Positions 10,146-21,939 of a stretch of 64,000 nt of DNA are shown one piece after another. Numbering within the stretch: position 1 is the stretch's first letter; each line of letters opens with the position of its first letter. A model generated the notes under the pieces. That model did not search any database. It was not told the origin of the DNA and saw only the letters and a list, made by a program, of their open reading frames with translations. A program made the position numbers and the translations under genes. The stretch is from Escherichia coli (lineage in GTDB: Bacteria; Pseudomonadota; Gammaproteobacteria; Enterobacterales; Enterobacteriaceae): assembly GCF_003334305.1 (NCBI RefSeq), contig NZ_QOWS01000002.1, one strand, 5' to 3'.

Positions 10146-10504
10146 TGGCGGGCATTAATCTCAATAAAAAATTATGGCGTATTCCACAGCAGGGCATGGT
10201 CCGCGGCGTCTGCGCCGGGATTGCCAACTATTTTGATGTACCGGTAAAACTGGTGCGTATCCTGGTGGTGCTGTCGATTTTCTTCGGTCTGGCGCTGTTT
10301 ACCCTGGTTGCTTACATCATTTTGTCATTTGCGCTTGATCCAATGCCGGACAACATGGCCTTTGGTGAGCAGCTACCTTCCAGCAGCGAATTGCTGGATG
10401 AAGTCGACCGTGAACTGGCGGCAAGTGAAACGCGTTTACGCGAGATGGAACGTTATGTCACTTCCGATACTTTCACGTTACGTAGCCGTTTCCGTCAACT
10501 GTGA
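10145..10504 (+). CDS. pspC: phage shock protein C
   Basis: 119-aa ORF with central transmembrane segment; follows pspB. Confidence 0.92.
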
Positions 10505-10512
10505 GGAAAGTT

Positions 10513-10734
10513 ATGAATACTCGCTGGCAACAGGCCGGGCAAAAGGTAAAGCCTGGTTTCAAATTAGCAGGCAAGCTGGTACTTCTTACCGCACTGCGCT
10601 ATGGCCCGGCGGGTGTGGCGGGCTGGGCGATAAAATCAGTTGCTCGCCGACCGCTGAAAATGTTGCTGGCTGTGGCGCTGGAACCGCTGTTAAGTCGGGC
10701 TGCTAATAAACTGGCACAGCGTTATAAAAGGTGA
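10513..10734 (+). CDS. pspD: phage shock protein D
   Basis: Track ORF 10501..10734 trimmed to ATG 10513 ([11 protein letters not shown]...) giving 73 aa. Confidence 0.88.
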
Positions 10735-10808
10735 GGGGAGTTTCGCAAAAATTGTTAAATCTCAGGCGTATAATGGATGGCAATTTTCATCCATAGAAGG
10801 ACGCTTAC

Positions 10809-11123
10809 ATGTTTAAAAAAGGCTTACTTGCTCTGGCACTGGTGTTTTCACTGCCCGTTTTCGCCGCTGAACACTGGATCGATGTTCGTGTTCCAGAGCA
10901 GTATCAGCAAGAGCACGTTCAGGGGGCCATCAATATTCCCCTGAAGGAAGTGAAAGAGCGCATTGCCACCGCCGTTCCGGATAAAAACGACACCGTGAAA
11001 GTGTATTGCAATGCCGGACGCCAGTCAGGGCAAGCAAAAGAGATCCTTAGCGAGATGGGATATACCCACGTTGAGAACGCCGGTGGCCTGAAAGACATCG
11101 CAATGCCGAAGGTCAAAGGTTAA
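10809..11123 (+). CDS. pspE: thiosulfate sulfurtransferase (rhodanese), periplasmic
   Basis: 104-aa ORF with signal peptide and the rhodanese active-site region (VYCNAGRQSG). Confidence 0.92.
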   Translation: MFKKGLLALALVFSLPVFAAEHWIDVRVPEQYQQEHVQGAINIPLKEVKERIATAVPDKNDTVKVYCNAGRQSGQAKEILSEMGYTHVENAGGLKDIAMPKVKG

Positions 11124-11136
11124 AAGAATTCACCAT

Positions 11137-11166
11137 GAGCGGCGCTTATGCGCCGTTTTTTTTTCT
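11137..11166 (+). terminator. rho-independent terminator after pspE
   Basis: GC stem GGCGC-TTAT-GCGCC followed by a run of nine T. Confidence 0.7.
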
Positions 11167-11308
11167 GTCACACCTTATTTACATCCCCATAGATTATTTG
11201 CGTCAGCTCACAAATACGCTTTTTCCCTGGTAAAAAATGATTTCCTGCGTGACTAAAACCCTTGTGCTCAATTGACAGTTTATTTTCTGCGGAGTAGTCT
11301 CTCGTTTC

Positions 11309-11324
11309 ATGGGACCGCTACCAC
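11309..11324 (+). promoter_or_regulatory. candidate YcjW (LacI-family) operator, copy 1, 12 bp upstream of the ycjM ATG
   Basis: ATGGGACCGCTACCAC; an identical 16-mer recurs at 21236-21251. Imperfect dyad TGGGAC-CG-CTACCA with the central CG typical of LacI/GalR-family operators. Confidence 0.5.
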
Positions 11325-11335
11325 GGAAAGGCAAC

Positions 11336-13015
11336 ATGAAACAGAAAATTACGGATTACCTGGACGAAATCTACGGTGGAACATTTACCGCAACTCATTT
11401 ACAGAAACTTGTAACGCGTCTTGAGAGTGCGAAACGATTAATTACACAGCGACGTAAAAAACACTGGGATGAAAGTGATGTCGTGTTAATTACCTATGCC
11501 GATCAATTTCACAGCAATGATTTAAAACCATTACCCACATTTAATCAGTTTTACCATCAATGGCTGCAAAGCATTTTTTCACATGTTCATTTGTTGCCGT
11601 TTTATCCATGGTCATCTGATGATGGCTTTTCGGTAATTGATTATCATCAGGTCGCCAGTGAAGCGGGGGAGTGGCAGGATATTCAGCAACTCGGTGAATG
11701 CAGTCATTTAATGTTTGATTTTGTCTGCAACCATATGTCGGCAAAAAGTGAATGGTTTAAAAACTATTTACAACAGCATCCAGGTTTTGAAGATTTTTTT
11801 ATTGCCGTTGACCCGCAAACCGATCTCAGCGCCGTCACTCGCCCGCGTGCGTTACCGTTATTAACGCCATTCCAGATGCGCGATCATTCAACGCGCCATT
11901 TATGGACCACCTTTAGTGACGATCAAATTGACCTGAATTACCGTAGCCCTGAAGTGTTGCTGGCGATGGTGGATGTTTTACTCTGTTACCTTGCGAAAGG
12001 TGCTGAGTATGTCCGCCTGGATGCCGTTGGCTTTATGTGGAAAGAGCCGGGAACAAGCTGCATCCATCTGGAAAAAACACATCTGATTATCAAACTGTTA
12101 CGGTCGATTATTGATAACGTTGCGCCAGGTACAGTGATCATTACCGAGACCAATGTTCCGCATAAAGACAACATTGCTTACTTTGGCGCAGGCGATGACG
12201 AAGCACATATGGTGTACCAGTTCTCGCTGCCGCCACTGGTGCTGCATGCGGTGCAAAAACAGAACGTTGAGGCGCTTTGTGCGTGGGCGCAAAACCTGAC
12301 ACTACCTTCCAGCAACACCACCTGGTTTAACTTCCTCGCCTCTCACGATGGCATCGGGCTAAACCCGCTACGGGGCTTGTTGCCTGAAAGCGAAATATTA
12401 GAGCTGGTCGAGGCGTTACAGCAGGAAGGTGCATTAGTAAACTGGAAAAATAATCCCGACGGTACACGCAGTCCGTATGAAATAAATGTGACCTATATGG
12501 ATGCGTTAAGCCGCCGTGAGAGTAGCGATGAAGAACGTTGCGCCAGGTTTATTCTCGCCCATGCGATTTTGTTAAGTTTCTCCGGTGTGCCAGCGATATA
12601 TATTCAAAGTATTCTTGGCTCGCGTAATGATTACGCAGGTGTCGAAAAACTCGGATATAACCGTGCGATTAACCGTAAAAAATATCACAGTAAAGAGATA
12701 ACCCGAGAACTGAACGATGAAGCTACATTAAGGCATGCGGTATATCATGAGTTGTCGCGTTTAATTACACTTCGTCGCAGCCATAACGAGTTTCATCCGG
12801 ATAATAATTTTACCATTGATACGATTAATTCATCCGTAATGCGTATTCAAAGAAGTAACGCTGATGGTAATTGTCTGACTGGATTGTTTAATGTCAGTAA
12901 AAATATTCAGCATGTAAATATTACTAATCTGCATGGTCGGGATCTGATTAGTGAAGTTGATATATTGGGTAATGAAATAACGCTGCGCCCCTGGCAGGTT
13001 ATGTGGATTAAATAA
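11336..13015 (+). CDS. ycjM: GH13-family sucrose-phosphorylase-like enzyme (glucosylglycerate phosphorylase)
   Basis: Track ORF 11309..13015 trimmed to ATG 11336 (MKQKITDYLDEIYGG...) giving 559 aa. Confidence 0.88.
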   Translation: MKQKITDYLDEIYGGTFTATHLQKLVTRLESAKRLITQRRKKHWDESDVVLITYADQFHSNDLKPLPTFNQFYHQWLQSIFSHVHLLPFYPWSSDDGFSVIDYHQVASEAGEWQDIQQLGECSHLMFDFVCNHMSAKSEWFKNYLQQHPGFEDFFIAVDPQTDLSAVTRPRALPLLTPFQMRDHSTRHLWTTFSDDQIDLNYRSPEVLLAMVDVLLCYLAKGAEYVRLDAVGFMWKEPGTSCIHLEKTHLIIKLLRSIIDNVAPGTVIITETNVPHKDNIAYFGAGDDEAHMVYQFSLPPLVLHAVQKQNVEALCAWAQNLTLPSSNTTWFNFLASHDGIGLNPLRGLLPESEILELVEALQQEGALVNWKNNPDGTRSPYEINVTYMDALSRRESSDEERCARFILAHAILLSFSGVPAIYIQSILGSRNDYAGVEKLGYNRAINRKKYHSKEITRELNDEATLRHAVYHELSRLITLRRSHNEFHPDNNFTIDTINSSVMRIQRSNADGNCLTGLFNVSKNIQHVNITNLHGRDLISEVDILGNEITLRPWQVMWIK

Positions 13016-13028
13016 AAAGGAACATCTC

Positions 13029-14321
13029 ATGATTAAATCAAAAATCGTGCTGTTATCAGCACTGGTTTCCTGCGCCCTGATTTCAGGCTGTAAAGAAGAA
13101 AATAAAACGAATGTATCCATCGAATTTATGCATTCTTCGGTGGAGCAGGAGCGCCAGGCCGTTATCAGTAAATTGATTGCCCGTTTTGAAAAAGAAAACC
13201 CTGGCATCACCGTTAAGCAAGTGCCCGTGGAAGAAGATGCCTATAACACTAAAGTCATTACTCTTTCACGTAGCGGTTCGCTGCCGGAAGTGATCGAAAC
13301 CAGCCATGACTACGCCAAAGTGATGGACAAAGAGCAGCTTATCGATCGCAAAGCGGTTGCCACAGTCATCAGCAACGTTGGTGAAGGCGCGTTTTACGAT
13401 GGCGTACTGCGTATTGTGCGTACCGAAGATGGTAGCGCATGGACCGGTGTTCCTGTCAGCGCCTGGATTGGCGGTATCTGGTATCGCAAAGATGTGCTGG
13501 CAAAAGCGGGGCTTGAGGAGCCGAAAAACTGGCAACAGCTGCTGGACGTTGCACAGAAACTGAATGACCCGGCGAATAAAAAATACGGCATTGCGCTGCC
13601 TACAGCAGAAAGCGTGTTGACGGAACAATCCTTCTCCCAGTTTGCGTTATCCAACCAGGCTAACGTCTTTAACGCCGAAGGCAAAATCACCCTTGATACA
13701 CCAGAGATGATGCAGGCACTGACCTATTACCGCGACCTTGCTGCCAACACTATGCCGGGTTCTAACGACATCATGGAAGTGAAAGACGCCTTTATGAACG
13801 GCACCGCGCCGATGGCGATTTACTCCACCTATATCCTTCCGGCTGTGATTAAAGAAGGCGACCCGAAAAACGTCGGTTTCGTGGTGCCAACCGAGAAAAA
13901 CTCTGCGGTCTACGGCATGTTGACCTCGCTGACCATTACCGCCGGGCAAAAGACCGAAGAGACGGAAGCAGCAGAAAAATTTGTCACCTTTATGGAGCAG
14001 GCAGACAACATTGCCGACTGGGTGATGATGTCGCCAGGTGCTGCGCTGCCGGTGAATAAAGCGGTTGTCACTACCGCCACCTGGAAAGACAACGACGTTA
14101 TTAAGGCGCTGGGTGAACTACCGAATCAGCTAATCGGTGAACTGCCAAATATTCAGGTCTTTGGTGCAGTAGGGGATAAAAACTTTACCCGCATGGGTGA
14201 TGTGACGGGGTCTGGAGTGGTGAGCTCCATGGTGCATAACGTCACCGTGGGTAAAGCCGATCTCCCTGGCACGCTGCAAGCGAGCCAGAAAAAGCTGGAT
14301 GAACTGATCGAACAGCACTAA
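13029..14321 (+). CDS. ycjN: ABC transporter periplasmic sugar-binding protein
   Basis: 430-aa ORF with lipoprotein-type signal peptide (LVSCALISGC). Confidence 0.88.
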   Translation: MIKSKIVLLSALVSCALISGCKEENKTNVSIEFMHSSVEQERQAVISKLIARFEKENPGITVKQVPVEEDAYNTKVITLSRSGSLPEVIETSHDYAKVMDKEQLIDRKAVATVISNVGEGAFYDGVLRIVRTEDGSAWTGVPVSAWIGGIWYRKDVLAKAGLEEPKNWQQLLDVAQKLNDPANKKYGIALPTAESVLTEQSFSQFALSNQANVFNAEGKITLDTPEMMQALTYYRDLAANTMPGSNDIMEVKDAFMNGTAPMAIYSTYILPAVIKEGDPKNVGFVVPTEKNSAVYGMLTSLTITAGQKTEETEAAEKFVTFMEQADNIADWVMMSPGAALPVNKAVVTTATWKDNDVIKALGELPNQLIGELPNIQVFGAVGDKNFTRMGDVTGSGVVSSMVHNVTVGKADLPGTLQASQKKLDELIEQH

Positions 14322-14341
14322 ACCCAGGACAGGAATCCGCA

Positions 14342-15223
14342 ATGAACAGGCTTTTTTCAGGTCGTTCCGATATGCCCTTTGCGCTGCTGCTTCTCGCGCC
14401 CAGCTTATTACTGCTGGGTGGTCTGGTGGCCTGGCCAATGGTGTCGAATATCGAAATCAGTTTTTTACGTCTGCCGCTCAATCCCAACATCGAGTCAACC
14501 TTTGTTGGGGTGAGTAACTATGTGCGTATCCTCTCCGATCCCGGCTTCTGGCACTCGCTGTGGATGACGGTCTGGTATACCGCGCTGGTGGTGGCGGGCA
14601 GCACCGTGCTCGGGCTGGCAGTGGCGATGTTTTTCAACCGCGAGTTCCATCTGCGCAAAACCGCGCGTTCGCTGGTGATCCTCTCCTACGTAACGCCGTC
14701 CATTTCGCTGGTGTTTGCCTGGAAATACATGTTCAACAACGGCTACGGCATTGTGAACTACCTCGGCGTCGATCTTCTGCATCTCTATGAGCAGGCACCG
14801 CTGTGGTTCGATAATCCGGGCAGTAGCTTTGTGCTGGTGGTGCTGTTCGCCATCTGGCGCTACTTCCCGTATGCCTTTATCTCGTTTCTGGCGATTTTGC
14901 AGACCATCGACAAATCGCTGTACGAAGCTGCAGAGATGGATGGCGCTAATGCCTGGCAACGGTTTCGTATCGTCACGCTGCCCGCGATTATGCCGGTCCT
15001 GGCGACGGTGGTGACCCTGCGCACCATCTGGATGTTCTACATGTTCGCGGATGTTTATTTGCTGACGACCAAGGTCGATATTCTCGGTGTATATCTCTAC
15101 AAAACCGCCTTTGCCTTTAATGACTTAGGGAAAGCGGCGGCGATCTCGGTGGTGCTCTTCATCATTATTTTCGCTGTCATTCTGCTGACCAGGAAACGGG
15201 TGAACCTCAATGGCAACAAATAA
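14342..15223 (+). CDS. ycjO: ABC transporter permease (MalF-like)
   Basis: 293-aa polytopic membrane protein. Confidence 0.88.
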   Translation: MNRLFSGRSDMPFALLLLAPSLLLLGGLVAWPMVSNIEISFLRLPLNPNIESTFVGVSNYVRILSDPGFWHSLWMTVWYTALVVAGSTVLGLAVAMFFNREFHLRKTARSLVILSYVTPSISLVFAWKYMFNNGYGIVNYLGVDLLHLYEQAPLWFDNPGSSFVLVVLFAIWRYFPYAFISFLAILQTIDKSLYEAAEMDGANAWQRFRIVTLPAIMPVLATVVTLRTIWMFYMFADVYLLTTKVDILGVYLYKTAFAFNDLGKAAAISVVLFIIIFAVILLTRKRVNLNGNK

Positions 15224-16052
15224 ACGCACACTCAGTCGCATCGGTTTTTACTGCGGGCTGGCGCTGTTTCTCATCATCACGCTGTTTCCATTTTTTGTGA
15301 TGCTGATGACCTCGTTCAAGGGCGCGAAAGAGGCGATCTCACTGCATCCTACGCTGCTGCCGCAGCAGTGGACGCTGGAGCATTACGTCGACATTTTTAA
15401 CCCGATGATTTTCCCGTTTGTCGACTACTTCCGTAACAGTCTGGTGGTGTCGGTGGTTTCATCCGTGGTGGCGGTATTCCTCGGCATTCTTGGGGCTTAC
15501 GCGCTTTCCCGCCTGCGCTTTAAAGGTCGGATGACCATCAATGCCAGCTTTTACACGGTGTATATGTTCTCTGGCATTTTGCTGGTGGTGCCGCTGTTCA
15601 AAATCATCACCGCGCTGGGCATTTACGACACCGAGATGGCGCTGATCATCACCATGGTGACGCAAACTCTGCCCACCGCCGTGTTTATGCTGAAAAGCTA
15701 CTTCGACACCATCCCCGATGAGATCGAAGAAGCGGCGATGATGGATGGCCTCAACCGTCTGCAAATTATCTTCCGCATCACCGTGCCGTTGGCGATGTCC
15801 GGGCTGATATCCGTGTTCGTCTACTGCTTTATGGTGGCGTGGAACGACTATCTGTTTGCGTCGATTTTCCTCTCCAGCGCCAGCAATTTCACCTTACCGG
15901 TGGGCCTGAACGCGCTGTTCAGTACGCCAGATTACATCTGGGGACGGATGATGGCGGCCTCACTGGTGACCGCATTGCCGGTGGTGATTATGTATGCGCT
16001 TTCGGAACGTTTTATTAAGAGTGGTTTGACCGCCGGTGGCGTGAAGGGCTAA
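15210..16052 (+). CDS. ycjP: ABC transporter permease (MalG-like)
   Basis: 280-aa polytopic membrane protein; overlaps the ycjO 3' end by 14 nt. Confidence 0.88.
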   Translation: MATNKRTLSRIGFYCGLALFLIITLFPFFVMLMTSFKGAKEAISLHPTLLPQQWTLEHYVDIFNPMIFPFVDYFRNSLVVSVVSSVVAVFLGILGAYALSRLRFKGRMTINASFYTVYMFSGILLVVPLFKIITALGIYDTEMALIITMVTQTLPTAVFMLKSYFDTIPDEIEEAAMMDGLNRLQIIFRITVPLAMSGLISVFVYCFMVAWNDYLFASIFLSSASNFTLPVGLNALFSTPDYIWGRMMAASLVTALPVVIMYALSERFIKSGLTAGGVKG

Positions 16053-16082
16053 AGCGGCCAGTTTCTTTACAAGGAGTTTTAA

Positions 16083-17135
16083 ATGAAAAAGTTAGTAGCC
16101 ACAGCACCGCGTGTTGCTGCGCTGGTTGAGTATGAAGATCGGGCGATTTTAGCCAATGAAGTGAAAATCCGCGTGCGTTTCGGCGCACCGAAACACGGAA
16201 CGGAAGTGGTCGACTTCCGCGCCGCCAGCCCGTTTATCGATGAAGACTTTAACGGTGAATGGCAGATGTTCACTCCGCGTCCGGCAGATGCGCCGCGCGG
16301 CATTGAGTTTGGCAAATTCCAGCTTGGCAACATGGTGGTTGGCGACATTATCGAGTGCGGCAGCGACGTAACCGACTACGCGGTGGGCGACAGCGTATGC
16401 GGCTACGGCCCACTCTCCGAGACGGTCATCATTAACGCGGTGAATAACTACAAGCTGCGCAAAATGCCGCAAGGCAGCTCCTGGAAAAACGCCGTCTGTT
16501 ACGACCCGGCGCAGTTTGCCATGAGCGGCGTGCGCGATGCCAACGTGCGCGTGGGTGATTTTGTGGTGGTGGTAGGGCTTGGCGCGATTGGTCAAATAGC
16601 CATCCAACTGGCGAAACGCGCTGGCGCATCGGTGGTAATTGGCGTCGATCCTATCGCCCATCGCTGTGATATTGCCCGTCGCCACGGTGCGGATTTCTGC
16701 CTTAACCCCATCGGCACTGACGTAGGTAAAGAGATCAAAACGCTGACCGGCAAGCAGGGTGCCGATGTGATTATCGAAACCAGCGGTTACGCCGACGCGC
16801 TGCAATCGGCGCTCCGCGGCCTGGCTTATGGCGGCACCATCTCGTATGTTGCGTTTGCCAAACCGTTTGCCGAAGGTTTTAACCTCGGACGCGAAGCCCA
16901 TTTCAATAACGCCAAAATTGTCTTCTCCCGCGCGTGCAGCGAACCGAACCCGGATTATCCGCGCTGGAGCCGCAAGCGTATCGAAGAAACCTGTTGGGAA
17001 CTGCTGATGAACGGTTATCTCAATTGTGAAGATCTAATCGACCCGGTGGTGACCTTTGCCAATAGCCCGGAAAGCTACATGCAGTATGTCGACCAGCATC
17101 CGGAACAGAGCATCAAAATGGGCGTTACGTTTTAA
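16083..17135 (+). CDS. ycjQ: zinc-dependent alcohol dehydrogenase family sugar dehydrogenase
   Basis: 350-aa ORF with the NAD-binding GLGAIG motif of medium-chain dehydrogenases. Confidence 0.88.
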   Translation: MKKLVATAPRVAALVEYEDRAILANEVKIRVRFGAPKHGTEVVDFRAASPFIDEDFNGEWQMFTPRPADAPRGIEFGKFQLGNMVVGDIIECGSDVTDYAVGDSVCGYGPLSETVIINAVNNYKLRKMPQGSSWKNAVCYDPAQFAMSGVRDANVRVGDFVVVVGLGAIGQIAIQLAKRAGASVVIGVDPIAHRCDIARRHGADFCLNPIGTDVGKEIKTLTGKQGADVIIETSGYADALQSALRGLAYGGTISYVAFAKPFAEGFNLGREAHFNNAKIVFSRACSEPNPDYPRWSRKRIEETCWELLMNGYLNCEDLIDPVVTFANSPESYMQYVDQHPEQSIKMGVTF

Positions 17136-17152
17136 TTCAAAGGAATGAAAAA

Positions 17153-17941
17153 ATGAAAATAGGCACACAGAATCAGGCATTCTTTCCGGAAAACATTCTG
17201 GAGAAATTTCGTTATATCAAAGAGATGGGCTTCGATGGTTTTGAGATTGACGGCAAACTGCTGGTCAACAATCTCGAAGAAGTCAAAGCAGCAATCAAAG
17301 AAACCGGTTTACCGGTGACCACCGCCTGCGGTGGCTATGACGGTTGGATTGGCGACTTTATCGAAGAGCGTCGTCTTAATGGCTTAAAGCAGATCGAACG
17401 CATTCTCGAAGCGCTGGCAGAAGTGGGGGGTAAAGGTATCGTCGTTCCGGCAGCGTGGGGCATGTTTACCTTCCGCTTACCGCCGATGACCTCGCCGCGT
17501 AGCCTGGACGGCGACCGCAAAATGGTGAGTGATTCCCTGCACGTACTGGAACAGGTCGCCGCGCGTACCGGAACCGTGGTGTATCTCGAACCGTTAAACC
17601 GCTATCAGGATCATATGATCAACACCCTCGCCGATGCCCGCCGTTACATCGTCGAAAACGATCTTAAACATGTACAGATTATCGGCGATTTCTATCACAT
17701 GAATATCGAAGAAGATAACCTGGCGCAGGCGCTGCATGACAACCGCGACCTGCTCGGTCATGTGCATATTGCGGATAACCATCGCTACCAGCCGGGCAGC
17801 GGCACCCTGGATTTCCACGCGCTGTTTGAACAGCTGCGCGCGGATAACTATCAGGGCTATGTAGTGTACGAAGGGCGTATCCGGGCGGAAGATCCTGCCC
17901 AGGCGTACCGTGATTCGTTGGCCTGGTTGCGTACCTGCTAA
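17153..17941 (+). CDS. ycjR: sugar phosphate isomerase/epimerase (xylose isomerase-like TIM barrel)
   Basis: 262-aa ORF; position and sequence match ycjR. Confidence 0.85.
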   Translation: MKIGTQNQAFFPENILEKFRYIKEMGFDGFEIDGKLLVNNLEEVKAAIKETGLPVTTACGGYDGWIGDFIEERRLNGLKQIERILEALAEVGGKGIVVPAAWGMFTFRLPPMTSPRSLDGDRKMVSDSLHVLEQVAARTGTVVYLEPLNRYQDHMINTLADARRYIVENDLKHVQIIGDFYHMNIEEDNLAQALHDNRDLLGHVHIADNHRYQPGSGTLDFHALFEQLRADNYQGYVVYEGRIRAEDPAQAYRDSLAWLRTC

Positions 17942-17950
17942 GAGGTCTTT

Positions 17951-19006
17951 GTGAAAAGTGCAATGACAAGCTCTCCGCTGCGGGTCGCGATAATAGGCGC
18001 AGGCCAGGTGGCGGATAAGGTTCATGCTTCGTACTACTGCACCCGCAACGATCTGGAACTGGTGGCTGTCTGTGACAGCCGCCTTTCCCAGGCGCAGGCG
18101 CTGGCAGATAAATACGGGAATGCATCCGTGTGGGACGATCCGCAGGCCATGCTGCTGGCGGTGAAACCTGATGTGGTTAGCGTCTGCTCACCTAACCGTT
18201 TTCATTACGAACATACCCTGATGGCACTGGAAGCGGGCTGCCATGTGATGTGCGAAAAACCGCCCGCCATGACGCCAGAACAGGCGCGGGAAATGTGCGA
18301 TACCGCGCGCAAACTGGGCAAGGTGCTGGCCTACGACTTTCACCATCGTTTTGCGCTCGATACGCAACAGCTGCGTGACCAGGTGACCAACGGCGTTTTG
18401 GGAGAGATTTACGTTACCACCGCCCGCGCCCTGCGTCGCTGCGGCGTTCCTGGCTGGGGCGTCTTTACCAATAAAGAACTGCAGGGTGGTGGCCCGCTGA
18501 TCGACATCGGCATTCATATGCTGGATGCTGCGATGTATGTGCTGGGCTTTCCGGCGGTGAAAAGCGTGAATGCGCATAGCTTTCAAAAGATCGGCACGCA
18601 AAAGAGCTGTGGTCAATTTGGCGAGTGGGATCCGGCAACTTATAGCGTCGAAGATTCGCTGTTTGGCACCATTGAATTTCATAACGGCGGCATTCTGTGG
18701 CTGGAAACGTCATTTGCACTCAACATCCGCGAACAGTCGATTATGAACGTCAGCTTTTGTGGTGATAAAGCCGGTGCGACGCTGTTTCCAGCACATATCT
18801 ACACCGATAACAACGGTGAATTAATGACGCTGATGCAACGGGAACTGGCAGACGACAACCGCCATTTGCGCAGCATGGAAGCCTTTATCAATCACGTACA
18901 GGGCAAGCCCGTGATGATAGCCGACGCCGAGCAGGGGTACATCATCCAGCAACTGGTGGCGGCGTTGTATCAATCCGCAGAAACAGGGACGCGTGTGGAA
19001 TTATGA
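17951..19006 (+). CDS. ycjS: Gfo/Idh/MocA-family NAD-dependent oxidoreductase
   Basis: 351-aa ORF with N-terminal Rossmann signature (VAIIGAGQVA). Confidence 0.88.
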   Translation: MKSAMTSSPLRVAIIGAGQVADKVHASYYCTRNDLELVAVCDSRLSQAQALADKYGNASVWDDPQAMLLAVKPDVVSVCSPNRFHYEHTLMALEAGCHVMCEKPPAMTPEQAREMCDTARKLGKVLAYDFHHRFALDTQQLRDQVTNGVLGEIYVTTARALRRCGVPGWGVFTNKELQGGGPLIDIGIHMLDAAMYVLGFPAVKSVNAHSFQKIGTQKSCGQFGEWDPATYSVEDSLFGTIEFHNGGILWLETSFALNIREQSIMNVSFCGDKAGATLFPAHIYTDNNGELMTLMQRELADDNRHLRSMEAFINHVQGKPVMIADAEQGYIIQQLVAALYQSAETGTRVEL

Positions 19007-21270
19007 CCAGGCCAGTAACGTTATCAGAACCCCATTTCAGCCAGCATACCCTGAACAAGTATGCATCGCTGATGGCGCAGGGGAACGGCTATCTTGGGCT
19101 TCGCGCCAGCCATGAAGAAGATTACACGCGCCAGACGCGAGGGATGTATCTGGCGGGGCTGTATCATCGGGCGGGAAAAGGTGAAATCAACGAACTGGTG
19201 AACCTGCCTGATATCTTGGGGATGGAGATTGCCATAAATGGTGAGGTTTTCTCGTTATCCCGCGAAGCCTGGCAGCGTGAACTTGACTTTGCCAGTGGAG
19301 AATTACGCCGTAGCGTTGTCTGGCGTACCAGCAACGGCACAGGTTACACCATCGCCAGCCGTCGCTTTGTTTCGGCAGACCAACTGCCGCTCATTGTGCT
19401 GGAAATCACTATTACGCCACTGGACGCCGACGCGTCAGTGCTGATTTCAACAGGTATCGACGCCACGCAAACCAACCACGGTCGCCAACATCTCGACGAA
19501 ACCCAGGTGCGGGTGTTTGGTCAGCATCTGATGCAGGGGATCTACACCACCCAGGATGGACGCAGTGATGTGGCCATCAGCTGTTGCTGTATGGTGAGCG
19601 GTGATGTGCAGCAATGCTATACCGCCAAAGAGCGCCGTTTGCAGCAACATACCAGTGCGCAGCTTCATGCAGGCGAGACAGTGACGTTGCAAAAACTGGT
19701 GTGGATCGACTGGCGGGATGACAGGCAAGCCGTTTTAGACGAGTGGGGCAGCGCGTCGCTTCGCCAGCTTGAAATGTGCGCGCAGCAGAGTTACGACCAA
19801 CTTCTTGCAGTATCAACAGAAAACTGGCGTCAATGGTGGCAGAAACGTCGTATCACGGTAAATGGCGGCGAAGCGCACGATCAGCAAGCGTTAGATTATG
19901 CGCTTTATCATCTGCGCATCATGACGCCTGCCCACGACGAGCGCAGCAGCATTGCGGCAAAAGGCTTAACCGGCGAAGGCTACAAAGGCCACGTTTTCTG
20001 GGATACAGAAGTATTTTTGTTACCGTTTCATCTGTTTAGCGATCCGACGGTTGCCCGAAGTTTACTGCGTTATCGCTGGCACAACTTGCCAGGCGCGCAG
20101 GAGAAAGCGCGACGCAACGGCTGGCAGGGCGCGCTATTTCCGTGGGAAAGCGCGCGCAGCGGCGAAGAAGAGACGCCGGAATTTGCCGCCATTAACATTC
20201 GCACCGGGCTGCGGCAAAAAGTGGCCTCGGCGCAGGCGGAACATCATCTGGTGGCCGATATCGCCTGGGCGGTTATTCAATACTGGCAGACCACGGGGGA
20301 TGAAAGTTTCATTGCGCATGAAGGCATGGCGCTACTTCTGGAAACTGCAAAGTTCTGGATTAGCCGCGCGGTGAGGGTTAACGACCGTCTGGAAATTCAT
20401 GATGTTATTGGGCCTGACGAATATACCGAACATGTCAATAATAACGCCTTCACCAGCTATATGGCGTATTACAACGTCCAGCAGGCGCTGAGTATTGCCC
20501 GCCAGTTTGGCTGTAGCGACGACGCGTTTATTCATCGCGCCGAAATGTTCCTCAAAGAACTGTGGCTACCAGAAACTCAGCCCGACGGCGTTTTGCCGCA
20601 GGATGATTCGTTTATGGCGAAACCAGCGATTAATCTGGCGAAATACAAAGCGGCGGCGGGGAAGCAAACCATTTTGCTGGATTATTCACGCGCAGAAGTG
20701 AACGAAATGCAGATCCTCAAGCAGGCAGATGTGGTGATGCTCAATTACATGCTGCCGGAGCAGTTCTCAGCGGCATCGTGTCTCGCCAATCTGCAATTTT
20801 ATGAACCGCGTACCATTCACGACTCGTCATTAAGTAAAGCAATCCACGGCATTGTTGCCGCACGTTGTGGCCTGTTGGCGCAGGGATATCACTTCTGGCG
20901 GGAGGGGACTGAAATCGATCTTGGTGCTGATCCGCATAGTTGTGATGATGGTATCCATGCTGCCGCAACTGGCGCTATCTGGCTGGGGGCGATTCAGGGT
21001 TTTGCCGGGGTGAGCGTGCGTGACGGTGAATTGCATCTCAATCCGGCGTTACCTGAGCAGTGGCAACAGTTGTCTTTCCCTCTGTTCTGGCAGGGCTGCG
21101 AATTACAGGTCACGCTCGACGCGCAGCGTATTGCGATTCGAACTTCTGCGCCCGTTTCACTGCGTTTGAACGGTCAGCTTATATCCGTGGCTGAAGAATC
21201 TGTTTTCTGTTTGGGTGATTTTATTTTGCCCTTCAATGGGACCGCTACCACACATCAGGAGGATGAATGA
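19003..21270 (+). CDS. ycjT: GH65-family glycoside phosphorylase (kojibiose phosphorylase)
   Basis: 755-aa ORF; start overlaps the ycjS stop (ATGA). Confidence 0.88.
21236..21251 (+). promoter_or_regulatory. candidate YcjW operator, copy 2, inside the 3' end of ycjT and 15 bp upstream of the ycjU ATG
   Basis: Exact second copy of ATGGGACCGCTACCAC (see 11309-11324). Confidence 0.5.
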
Positions 21271-21926
21271 AACTGCAAGGGGTAATTTTCGATCTGGATG
21301 GTGTAATCACCGATACCGCGCATCTGCATTTCCAGGCGTGGCAGCAGATTGCCGCTGAAATTGGCATCAGCATTGATGCGCAGTTTAACGAATCCCTAAA
21401 AGGGATCAGCCGCGATGAGTCTCTGCGGCGCATTCTGCAACACGGGGGCAAAGAGGGCGACTTTAACTCGCAGGAGAGGGCGCAACTGGCGTATCGCAAA
21501 AATCTGCTCTATGTCCACTCACTGCGCGAGTTGACGGTCAACGCTGTTCTACCCGGCATTCGCTCTTTGCTGGCAGCTCTCCGTGCACAGCAGATCCCGG
21601 TTGGGCTGGCTTCTGTCTCCCTGAATGCGCCGACGATTTTAGCGGCGCTGGAGCTGCGCGAGTTTTTCACCTTCTACGCGGATGCTTCCCAACTTAAAAA
21701 CTCGAAACCGGACCCGGAAATCTTTCTCGCCGCCTGTGCAGGGCTGGGCGTGCCGCCGCAGGCATGTATCGGCATTGAAGATGCGCAGGCGGGCATTGAC
21801 GCCATTAACGCCAGCGGTATGCGCTCGGTGGGGATCGGCGCGGGCTTAACCGGGGCGCAATTACTGTTGCCTTCAACGGAATCACTCACCTGGCCGCGGT
21901 TATCGGCCTTCTGGCAAAACGTATAG
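21267..21926 (+). CDS. ycjU: beta-phosphoglucomutase (HAD superfamily)
   Basis: 219-aa ORF with the HAD motif I ([12 protein letters not shown]). Confidence 0.9.
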
Positions 21927-21939
21927 CAAAGGAATCAAC

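Follow-up and report, generated by a model that had tools for sequence, protein, structure and literature searches.

The sequence ATGGGACCGCTACCAC, which is present in two exact copies in the 64,000-nucleotide stretch of Escherichia coli DNA analysed here (the window), almost certainly marks a pair of operators to which YcjW, which represses the sugar-utilisation operon ycjMNOPQRSTUV-ompG, binds with high affinity. It has been shown in published experiments that both sites are bound by YcjW in vivo and site 1 also in vitro, that YcjW represses the operon and that kojibiose detaches the repressor from the DNA. The present comparisons show, at the level of sequence, the conservation of both sites, an arrangement of ycjM promoter, predicted transcription start site (TSS) and operator that is kept from E. 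coli to Listeria, and selection on the DNA of site 2, which refines the published description by placing this site inside ycjT. The regulator, both sites, the motif, in vitro binding of the site 1 fragment and an inducer were all already known. A sequence-only reading of the window had proposed the 16-mer as a YcjW operator and had treated the assignment as an open question, which it was not, both sites, their binding and the inducer having been published in 2019 (PMC6599011). The proposal itself is supported by published ChIP-seq, EMSA and ChIP-exo data and by footprinting across genera; a true operator can be recovered by such a reading.

Two copies of one operator in the ycj region

The window covers the pspF / pspABCDE / ycjMNOPQRSTUV-ompG / ycjW region of E. 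coli and is 100% identical to several complete genomes. Gene annotation was taken from an identical E. coli record (window coordinate = locus coordinate + 6799). The main features are as follows:

11310-11323, + strand: YcjW operator 1, core TGGGACCGCTACCA, within the 5' leader of ycjM and 12 nt upstream of its ATG (exact match, oligonucleotide LL58, ChIP-seq peak, conservation)
21237-21250, + strand: YcjW operator 2, with the same 14-bp core, within the final codons of ycjT and 16 nt upstream of the ycjU ATG (exact match, ChIP-exo peak 20, ChIP-seq peak, conservation)
11336-23972, + strand: regulated operon ycjMNOPQRSTUV-ompG (RefSeq annotation, published derepression in a ycjW deletion), annotated as encoding glucosylglycerate phosphorylase, an ABC transporter, dehydrogenases/epimerase, kojibiose phosphorylase, beta-phosphoglucomutase and a porin
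24083-25081, - strand: ycjW, LacI/GalR-family repressor of both operators, convergent with the operon (annotation, Pfam, PDB relatives)

The exact copies of the 16-mer lie at 11309-11324 and 21236-21251, both on the + strand and 9927 bp apart, and a search of the window at up to three mismatches returned no third copy. The first copy ends 11 nt before the ycjM ATG (11336) and the second 15 nt before the ATG of ycjU (pgmB; 21267). The exact repeat is 16 bp long, the flanking bases of the two copies differing on either side. The imperfect dyad around a central CG described in the sequence-only reading is present in the 14-bp core (TGGGAC-CG-CTACCA), in which five of the seven position pairs are complementary, and such a near-palindrome with a central CG corresponds to the form of LacI/GalR-family operators (14-20 bp); a perfect palindrome, TGGGAGCGCTCCCA, was found among the orthologous sites. 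The outer A and C of the 16-mer vary between genera, and in K-12 MG1655 the site 2 core is followed by an A, which shortens the exact repeat to 15 bp. These differences imply that the conserved, functional unit is the 14-bp core (11310-11323 and 21237-21250) and not the full 16-mer. The motif, the two positions, the repressor, the operon and the link to pspE all agree with those published for K-12, whereas this strain has C instead of A after the site 2 core, which extends the exact repeat from 15 to 16 bp. The strain also carries ycjV (21940-23022) as an intact ABC ATPase gene of 1083 nt; the K-12 MG1655 annotation treats it as a pseudogene in two parts, ycjV and ymjB. At 11137-11158, directly after pspE and ~115 nt upstream of the ycjM -35 element, a hairpin with a T-run resembles an intrinsic terminator and is the only evident barrier between the psp and ycj operons.

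In 64 kb of sequence, an exact repeat of 16 bp has no significance by itself. The earlier assertion that such a match within 10 kb is unlikely by chance is weakened by dinucleotide shuffles of the window, 18% of which yield a direct 16-mer repeat within 10 kb (uniform expectation for such a pair in 64 kb, 0.15). The window holds 10 exact repeats of at least 16 nt (three direct and seven inverted; shuffle mean, 1.35), and the nine others, 16-17 nt long (23203/61162, 31826/34272 and seven inverted pairs), are without evident positional logic and at about chance frequency. Since exact 16-mers are common in shuffles, conservation across genera, rather than the repeat, was used as evidence, and the significance of the element rests on its position, symmetry and conservation.

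The comparative set comprised 80 loci from other species, with YcjR as the anchor and ycjM, ycjT, ycjU and ycjW located in each; a core was counted when within two mismatches of TGGNANCGNTNCCA, and ycjM sites when within 60 nt upstream of the start. A scan of other genomes for the motif upstream of ycjM orthologues, suggested in the sequence-only reading, found the core before ycjM in all 53 non-Escherichia Enterobacterales loci with a ycjM start, the 14-mer being identical to TGGGACCGCTACCA in 44 of these. The core was also found just before ycjU in 46 of 51 non-Escherichia Enterobacterales loci (identical in 31), and the median nucleotide identity of ycjT to E. coli in these genomes is 63%. 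The family-wide consensus is TGGKASCGSTMCCA, again with a central CG, and a conserved site upstream of orthologous targets is the footprint of a regulon. At up to three mismatches, scans of the window gave six matches to the E. coli core (3.9 expected) and 18 matches to TGGKASCGSTMCCA (16.4 expected), both counts being at chance level, and no further site emerged within the ycj cluster or upstream of ycjW or pspE. There is thus no sign, in these scans, of ycjW autoregulation or of a direct pspE site, in agreement with PMC6599011.

It is extremely improbable that the repeat represents a chance coincidence or an element acting in RNA (a leader hairpin, or an sRNA target beside the Shine-Dalgarno sequence) instead of a protein-binding site. 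The abundance of exact repeats in the window and in its shuffles is compatible with chance, and both copies would be transcribed, each right before a ribosome-binding site, as expected of an RNA element. However, chance coincidence was rejected on the conservation of both positions across genera, and an RNA-level role was rejected on folding and Rfam comparisons: the predicted folds are no better than those of shuffled sequences (z = -1.66, +1.01 and -1.34), the putative stem has 3 bp only, and no Rfam family matched in 10500-25500. As the main explanation, both are refuted by the published EMSA and ChIP results (PMC6599011).

ChIP-seq with tagged YcjW gave the strongest peaks before the ycjM start codon and at ycjT/ycjU and defined the YcjW motif as a 14-nt palindrome around a central CG; the binding was validated with purified YcjW in an EMSA with competition, on 50-bp probes (Luhachack, Rasouly, Shamovsky & Nudler 2019, Nat Commun 10:2868, PMC6599011). 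The ycjM-EMSA oligonucleotide LL58, GAGTAGTCTCTCGTTTCATGGGACCGCTACCACGGAAAGGCAACatgAAAC (PMC6599011), is identical to window positions 11292-11342 and has operator 1 at its centre; the EMSA that had been proposed as a check on a fragment covering 11290-11340 is therefore already published, with binding by YcjW as its outcome. The accessible part of the oligonucleotide entries of PMC6599011 includes no EMSA probe for site 2. Deletion of ycjW led to strong upregulation of ycjM, ycjT, ycjU and ompG, and kojibiose at 0.5-1 mM abolished the YcjW-DNA complex, which trehalose and sucrose did not (PMC6599011). Because E. coli K-12 grows poorly on kojibiose, the authors question whether it is the natural inducer, and they report no YcjW motif at pspE, the modest increase of which they thought to be indirect (PMC6599011).

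In an independent ChIP-exo study, the YcjW signal was by far the highest at ycjM (signal/noise 840) and ycjU (1665), the other sites in the accessible part of the list having a signal/noise of at most about 120 (Gao et al. 2021, PMC8464067). The list also includes narP and cyaA, which were secondary sites of the 2019 study as well (PMC8464067). After coordinate conversion, the ycjU and narP motifs fall inside their ChIP-exo peaks, and these two sites validate the conversion; operator 2 lies inside peak 20, the strongest YcjW signal. The tabulated 'ycjM' peak (signal/noise 840) converts to 11415-11450, ~100 bp downstream of operator 1 and within the ycjM coding sequence, and a weak 'ycjN' peak (signal/noise 38) converts to about 13094-13131, in the 5' part of ycjN. 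A motif scan found no YcjW-like motif at either of these two positions. A predicted YcjW motif had reportedly been tested earlier by Zuo and Stormo (2014). The main text of Ravcheev 2014 does not name YcjW.

The ycjM promoter and its repressor

YcjW is a protein of 332 amino acids with a LacI-type helix-turn-helix domain (PF00356, 3e-20) and matches to Peripla_BP_1/3/4 (PF00532, PF13377 and PF13407), which correspond to a periplasmic-binding-protein-like sugar domain. Among solved structures, it is closest to a LacI-family regulator (5ysz), CcpA and PurR, and RbsR and LacI are also among its PDB relatives. As the sequence-only reading held, the convergent ycjW is the sole LacI-type regulator of the locus; no second LacI-family ORF was found in the window, and in 60+ loci ycjW is found together with the operon and the motif. 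The alignment of YcjW to LacI ends at LacI residue 313, with no C-terminal extension, and together with the length of 332 amino acids this implies that YcjW has no counterpart of the LacI tetramerisation helix. At the sequence level, YcjW therefore does not appear to have the ability of a looping repressor to bridge two operators as a tetramer formed through this helix.

The following elements surround operator 1:

11272-11277, + strand: predicted -35 element (TTGACA) of the ycjM promoter, read from the sequence, its distance from the operator constant in the 54-sequence set and in Listeria
11295-11300, + strand: predicted -10 element (TAGTCT; TAGATT in the Enterobacter group) in a conserved GAGTAG..T block, 17 nt after the -35 element and 9 nt before the operator
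11325-11338, + strand: Shine-Dalgarno-like GGAAAGG and ATG (11336) of ycjM, from the sequence, the RefSeq annotation and a conserved GGAAA block directly after the operator

An operator-anchored alignment of 54 distinct sequences (E. coli and 53 other Enterobacterales) showed that the arrangement of TTGACA, a 17-nt spacer, TAG..T, a 9-nt gap and the operator is kept throughout. A generic promoter scan returned no promoter at site 1, because the -10 element is weak (three of six matches); the predicted promoter was recognised by inspection of the sequence and borne out by its conservation. The ycjM TSS would lie near 11307-11309, which would put the centre of operator 1 near +9 to +11; beginning 9 nt past the -10 element, the operator would then cover about +2 to +17. 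With this predicted TSS, operator 1 is located at or just downstream of the promoter that it regulates, as is typical of LacI/GalR-family operators, and the predicted placement fits the published position of the ycjM site, after a predicted TSS and before the start codon (PMC6599011).

A YcjW dimer would recognise the 14-bp imperfect palindrome and, when bound to operator 1, would probably hinder RNA polymerase binding or promoter escape by a steric mechanism, as Lac repressor does at lac O1. Binding of a kojibiose-type alpha-glucoside to the sugar domain would then release YcjW and turn the operon on. Operator 2, 9.9 kb downstream and before the ycjU ribosome-binding site, would most likely serve as a second checkpoint for ycjU, ycjV and ompG, either as a block to elongating polymerase or through repression of a weak internal promoter. 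The system resembles Lac repressor and lac O1 in combining a LacI-family repressor, an imperfect palindrome with a central CG and a sugar inducer that releases the repressor, and also in its probable geometry, operator 1 being centred about +10 past the predicted TSS and lac O1 at +11. In contrast to Lac repressor, YcjW is without a tetramerisation tail, its second operator is 9.9 kb away instead of 92 or 401 bp, and its half-site is TGGGAC, compared with TGTGAGC in lac.

Operator 2 within the ycjT reading frame

The ycjT gene spans 19003-21270, ends with the stop codon TGA at 21268-21270 and overlaps ycjU by 4 nt. Copy 2 of the 16-mer, previously regarded as non-coding upstream DNA, is located within the 3' end of this coding sequence, where it encodes N-G-T-A-T-T (ycjT codons N745 to T750), whereas PMC6599011 puts site 2 between ycjT and ycjU. 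One further element adjoins it:

21257-21269, + strand: Shine-Dalgarno sequence AGGAGG and ATG (21267) of ycjU (pgmB), from the sequence and annotation; the GGAGG after operator 2 is kept across genera

In 46 of 50 loci, the ycjT ORF contains site 2, read in the same frame each time. Among the 2315 14-nt windows of ycjT, operator 2 ranks first by the fraction of perfect matches (63%) and second by mean identity. Conservation at its five third-codon positions reaches 94%, compared with 44% over the whole gene, and no other of the 751 runs of this kind scores as high. A change of the core from C..C to G..G is accompanied by a change of the peptide from GTAT to GSGT, and in two Atlantibacter-type loci (L054 and L056) the ycjT stop codon precedes site 2 and the site is still retained. 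The conservation of third-codon positions, the switch between GTAT and GSGT and the retention of the site past the stop codon together imply selection on the DNA, with the peptide as a passenger. By these comparisons, operator 2 is maintained by selection at the DNA level.

A search of the literature found no published experiment addressing the role of site 2 and no transcript-end data at this site. The role of the intragenic operator 2 is relevant to the silencing of OmpG, a porin that is normally off. Three readings of site 2 were ranked, with a roadblock to transcription ahead of an internal promoter and a DNA loop last, because of the apparently dimeric repressor and the distance. Site 2 may quite possibly act as a roadblock to polymerases that escape site 1 or read in from the strongly inducible psp operon upstream, keeping OmpG, YcjV and YcjU off in the absence of inducer, a reading that would fit in with the main explanation. 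Roadblocks of this kind are formed by the PurR operator in purB and by CcpA cre sites within ORFs, and site 2, like these, is an operator of an apparently dimeric LacI-family protein in coding sequence, well downstream of the promoter. A high-occupancy site in a transcribed region is what a roadblock calls for, and site 2, within a coding sequence and 9.9 kb inside the transcription unit, has the highest occupancy in vivo of all YcjW sites, with the strongest ChIP-exo signal. The selection on its DNA, the lack of conserved promoter elements before it and the fact that one intrinsic terminator (11137-11158) is all that was seen to separate pspE from the ycjM promoter point in the same direction. 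However, a roadblock would not need a fixed position just before the ycjU Shine-Dalgarno sequence, and single LacI-type roadblocks are often leaky. Unlike the PurR and CcpA examples, moreover, site 2 lies in a poorly conserved C-terminal tail and is fixed next to the downstream ribosome-binding site, and for YcjW the roadblock is a candidate only. A fuller version of the roadblock is put forward tentatively, as one possibility: operator 2 would be no redundant copy but an intragenic checkpoint in the ycjT frame, with the last conserved YcjT residues (G-T-A-T or G-S-G-T) as passenger, at which bound YcjW stops read-through, whether it starts at the ycjM promoter or in the stress-induced psp operon, gating OmpG, YcjU and YcjV apart from the first eight genes. 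If this checkpoint is real, OmpG, a potentially hazardous large-channel porin, would be gated separately.

It is more doubtful that site 2 is the operator of an internal promoter driving ycjUV-ompG separately, in a layout copied from ycjM (-10 element, 9 nt, operator, Shine-Dalgarno sequence and ATG). A hexamer, TATTTT (21222-21227), is located exactly 9 nt upstream of operator 2 in E. coli, in the same register as TAGTCT at operator 1; a Shine-Dalgarno sequence and a start codon directly follow both operators, and conservation is unusually high (0.85 and 0.96) at two third-codon positions of the T-rich block. Nevertheless, no -35-like hexamer accompanies TATTTT, the sequence at 17-nt spacing being TCTGTT, and across genera the A at position 2 and the T at position 6 of the -10 hexamer are conserved in only 50% and 39%, respectively, with TCTTGC in the Enterobacter group. 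A conserved internal promoter at site 2 was rejected, as the anchored alignment revealed no conserved -35/-10 pair upstream of the site and a promoter consensus scan there was empty; an internal promoter is kept only as a minority reading because of the E. coli TATTTT hexamer. Cooperation of the two operators through a 9.9-kb DNA loop, like that of lac O1/O2/O3 or gal OE/OI, is distinctly unlikely. A loop would accommodate the identity of the two cores, their strong occupancy in vivo and the conservation of the pair across Enterobacteriaceae. Against it, the 9927 bp between the operators lie outside the spacing of roughly 0.1-0.5 kb expected for looping, and to our knowledge all known auxiliary-operator distances are far below 9.9 kb. 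YcjW also lacks the C-terminal helix through which LacI tetramerises, its closest solved relatives CcpA and PurR are dimers, and YcjW itself was modelled as a dimer by Gao et al. (PMC8464067). The Firmicute relatives described below, moreover, are without the ycjU site.

Related loci in Firmicutes

A whole ycjM-V type cluster with ycjW was found in Listeria, Bacillus, Neobacillus and Paenibacillus (L062-L081), with ycjW divergent from ycjM and a YcjR that is 70-76% identical to the E. coli protein. In these loci, a related core, TGGGAGCGGTACCA, ends about 10-13 nt before ycjM, at the same distance as in E. coli, and the site at ycjU is absent altogether. In Listeria, TTGACA and TAATAT/TATAAT are positioned at the same distances from the operator as in Enterobacterales. 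These relationships suggest that the operon and its control region were transferred together across phyla.

The number and placement of the sites differ among these genera. Six Bacillus-type loci (L075, L076, L069, L080, L078 and L074) have two to four operator copies, ~26-64 bp apart, in the spacer between ycjW and ycjM (or between ycjW and ycjN); in L075, the copies end 166, 102, 55 and 12 nt before ycjM. The enterobacterial layout, in contrast to these arrays, consists of one promoter site and one site before ycjU. In Listeria loci, a copy with one mismatch, TGGGAGCGCTCCAA, occurs within the 3' end of ycjM, ahead of ycjN (L062, 5653-5666; L063, 5586; L066, 5460; L071, 3284), and represents an intragenic second site at a gene junction different from that in E. 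coli. A perfect palindrome, AGAAAGCGCTTTCT, is located between TTGACA and the -10 element of the ycjM promoter in L062-L067, L071, L074 and L077; it resembles a CcpA cre site and could mediate catabolite repression of the operon in Firmicutes.
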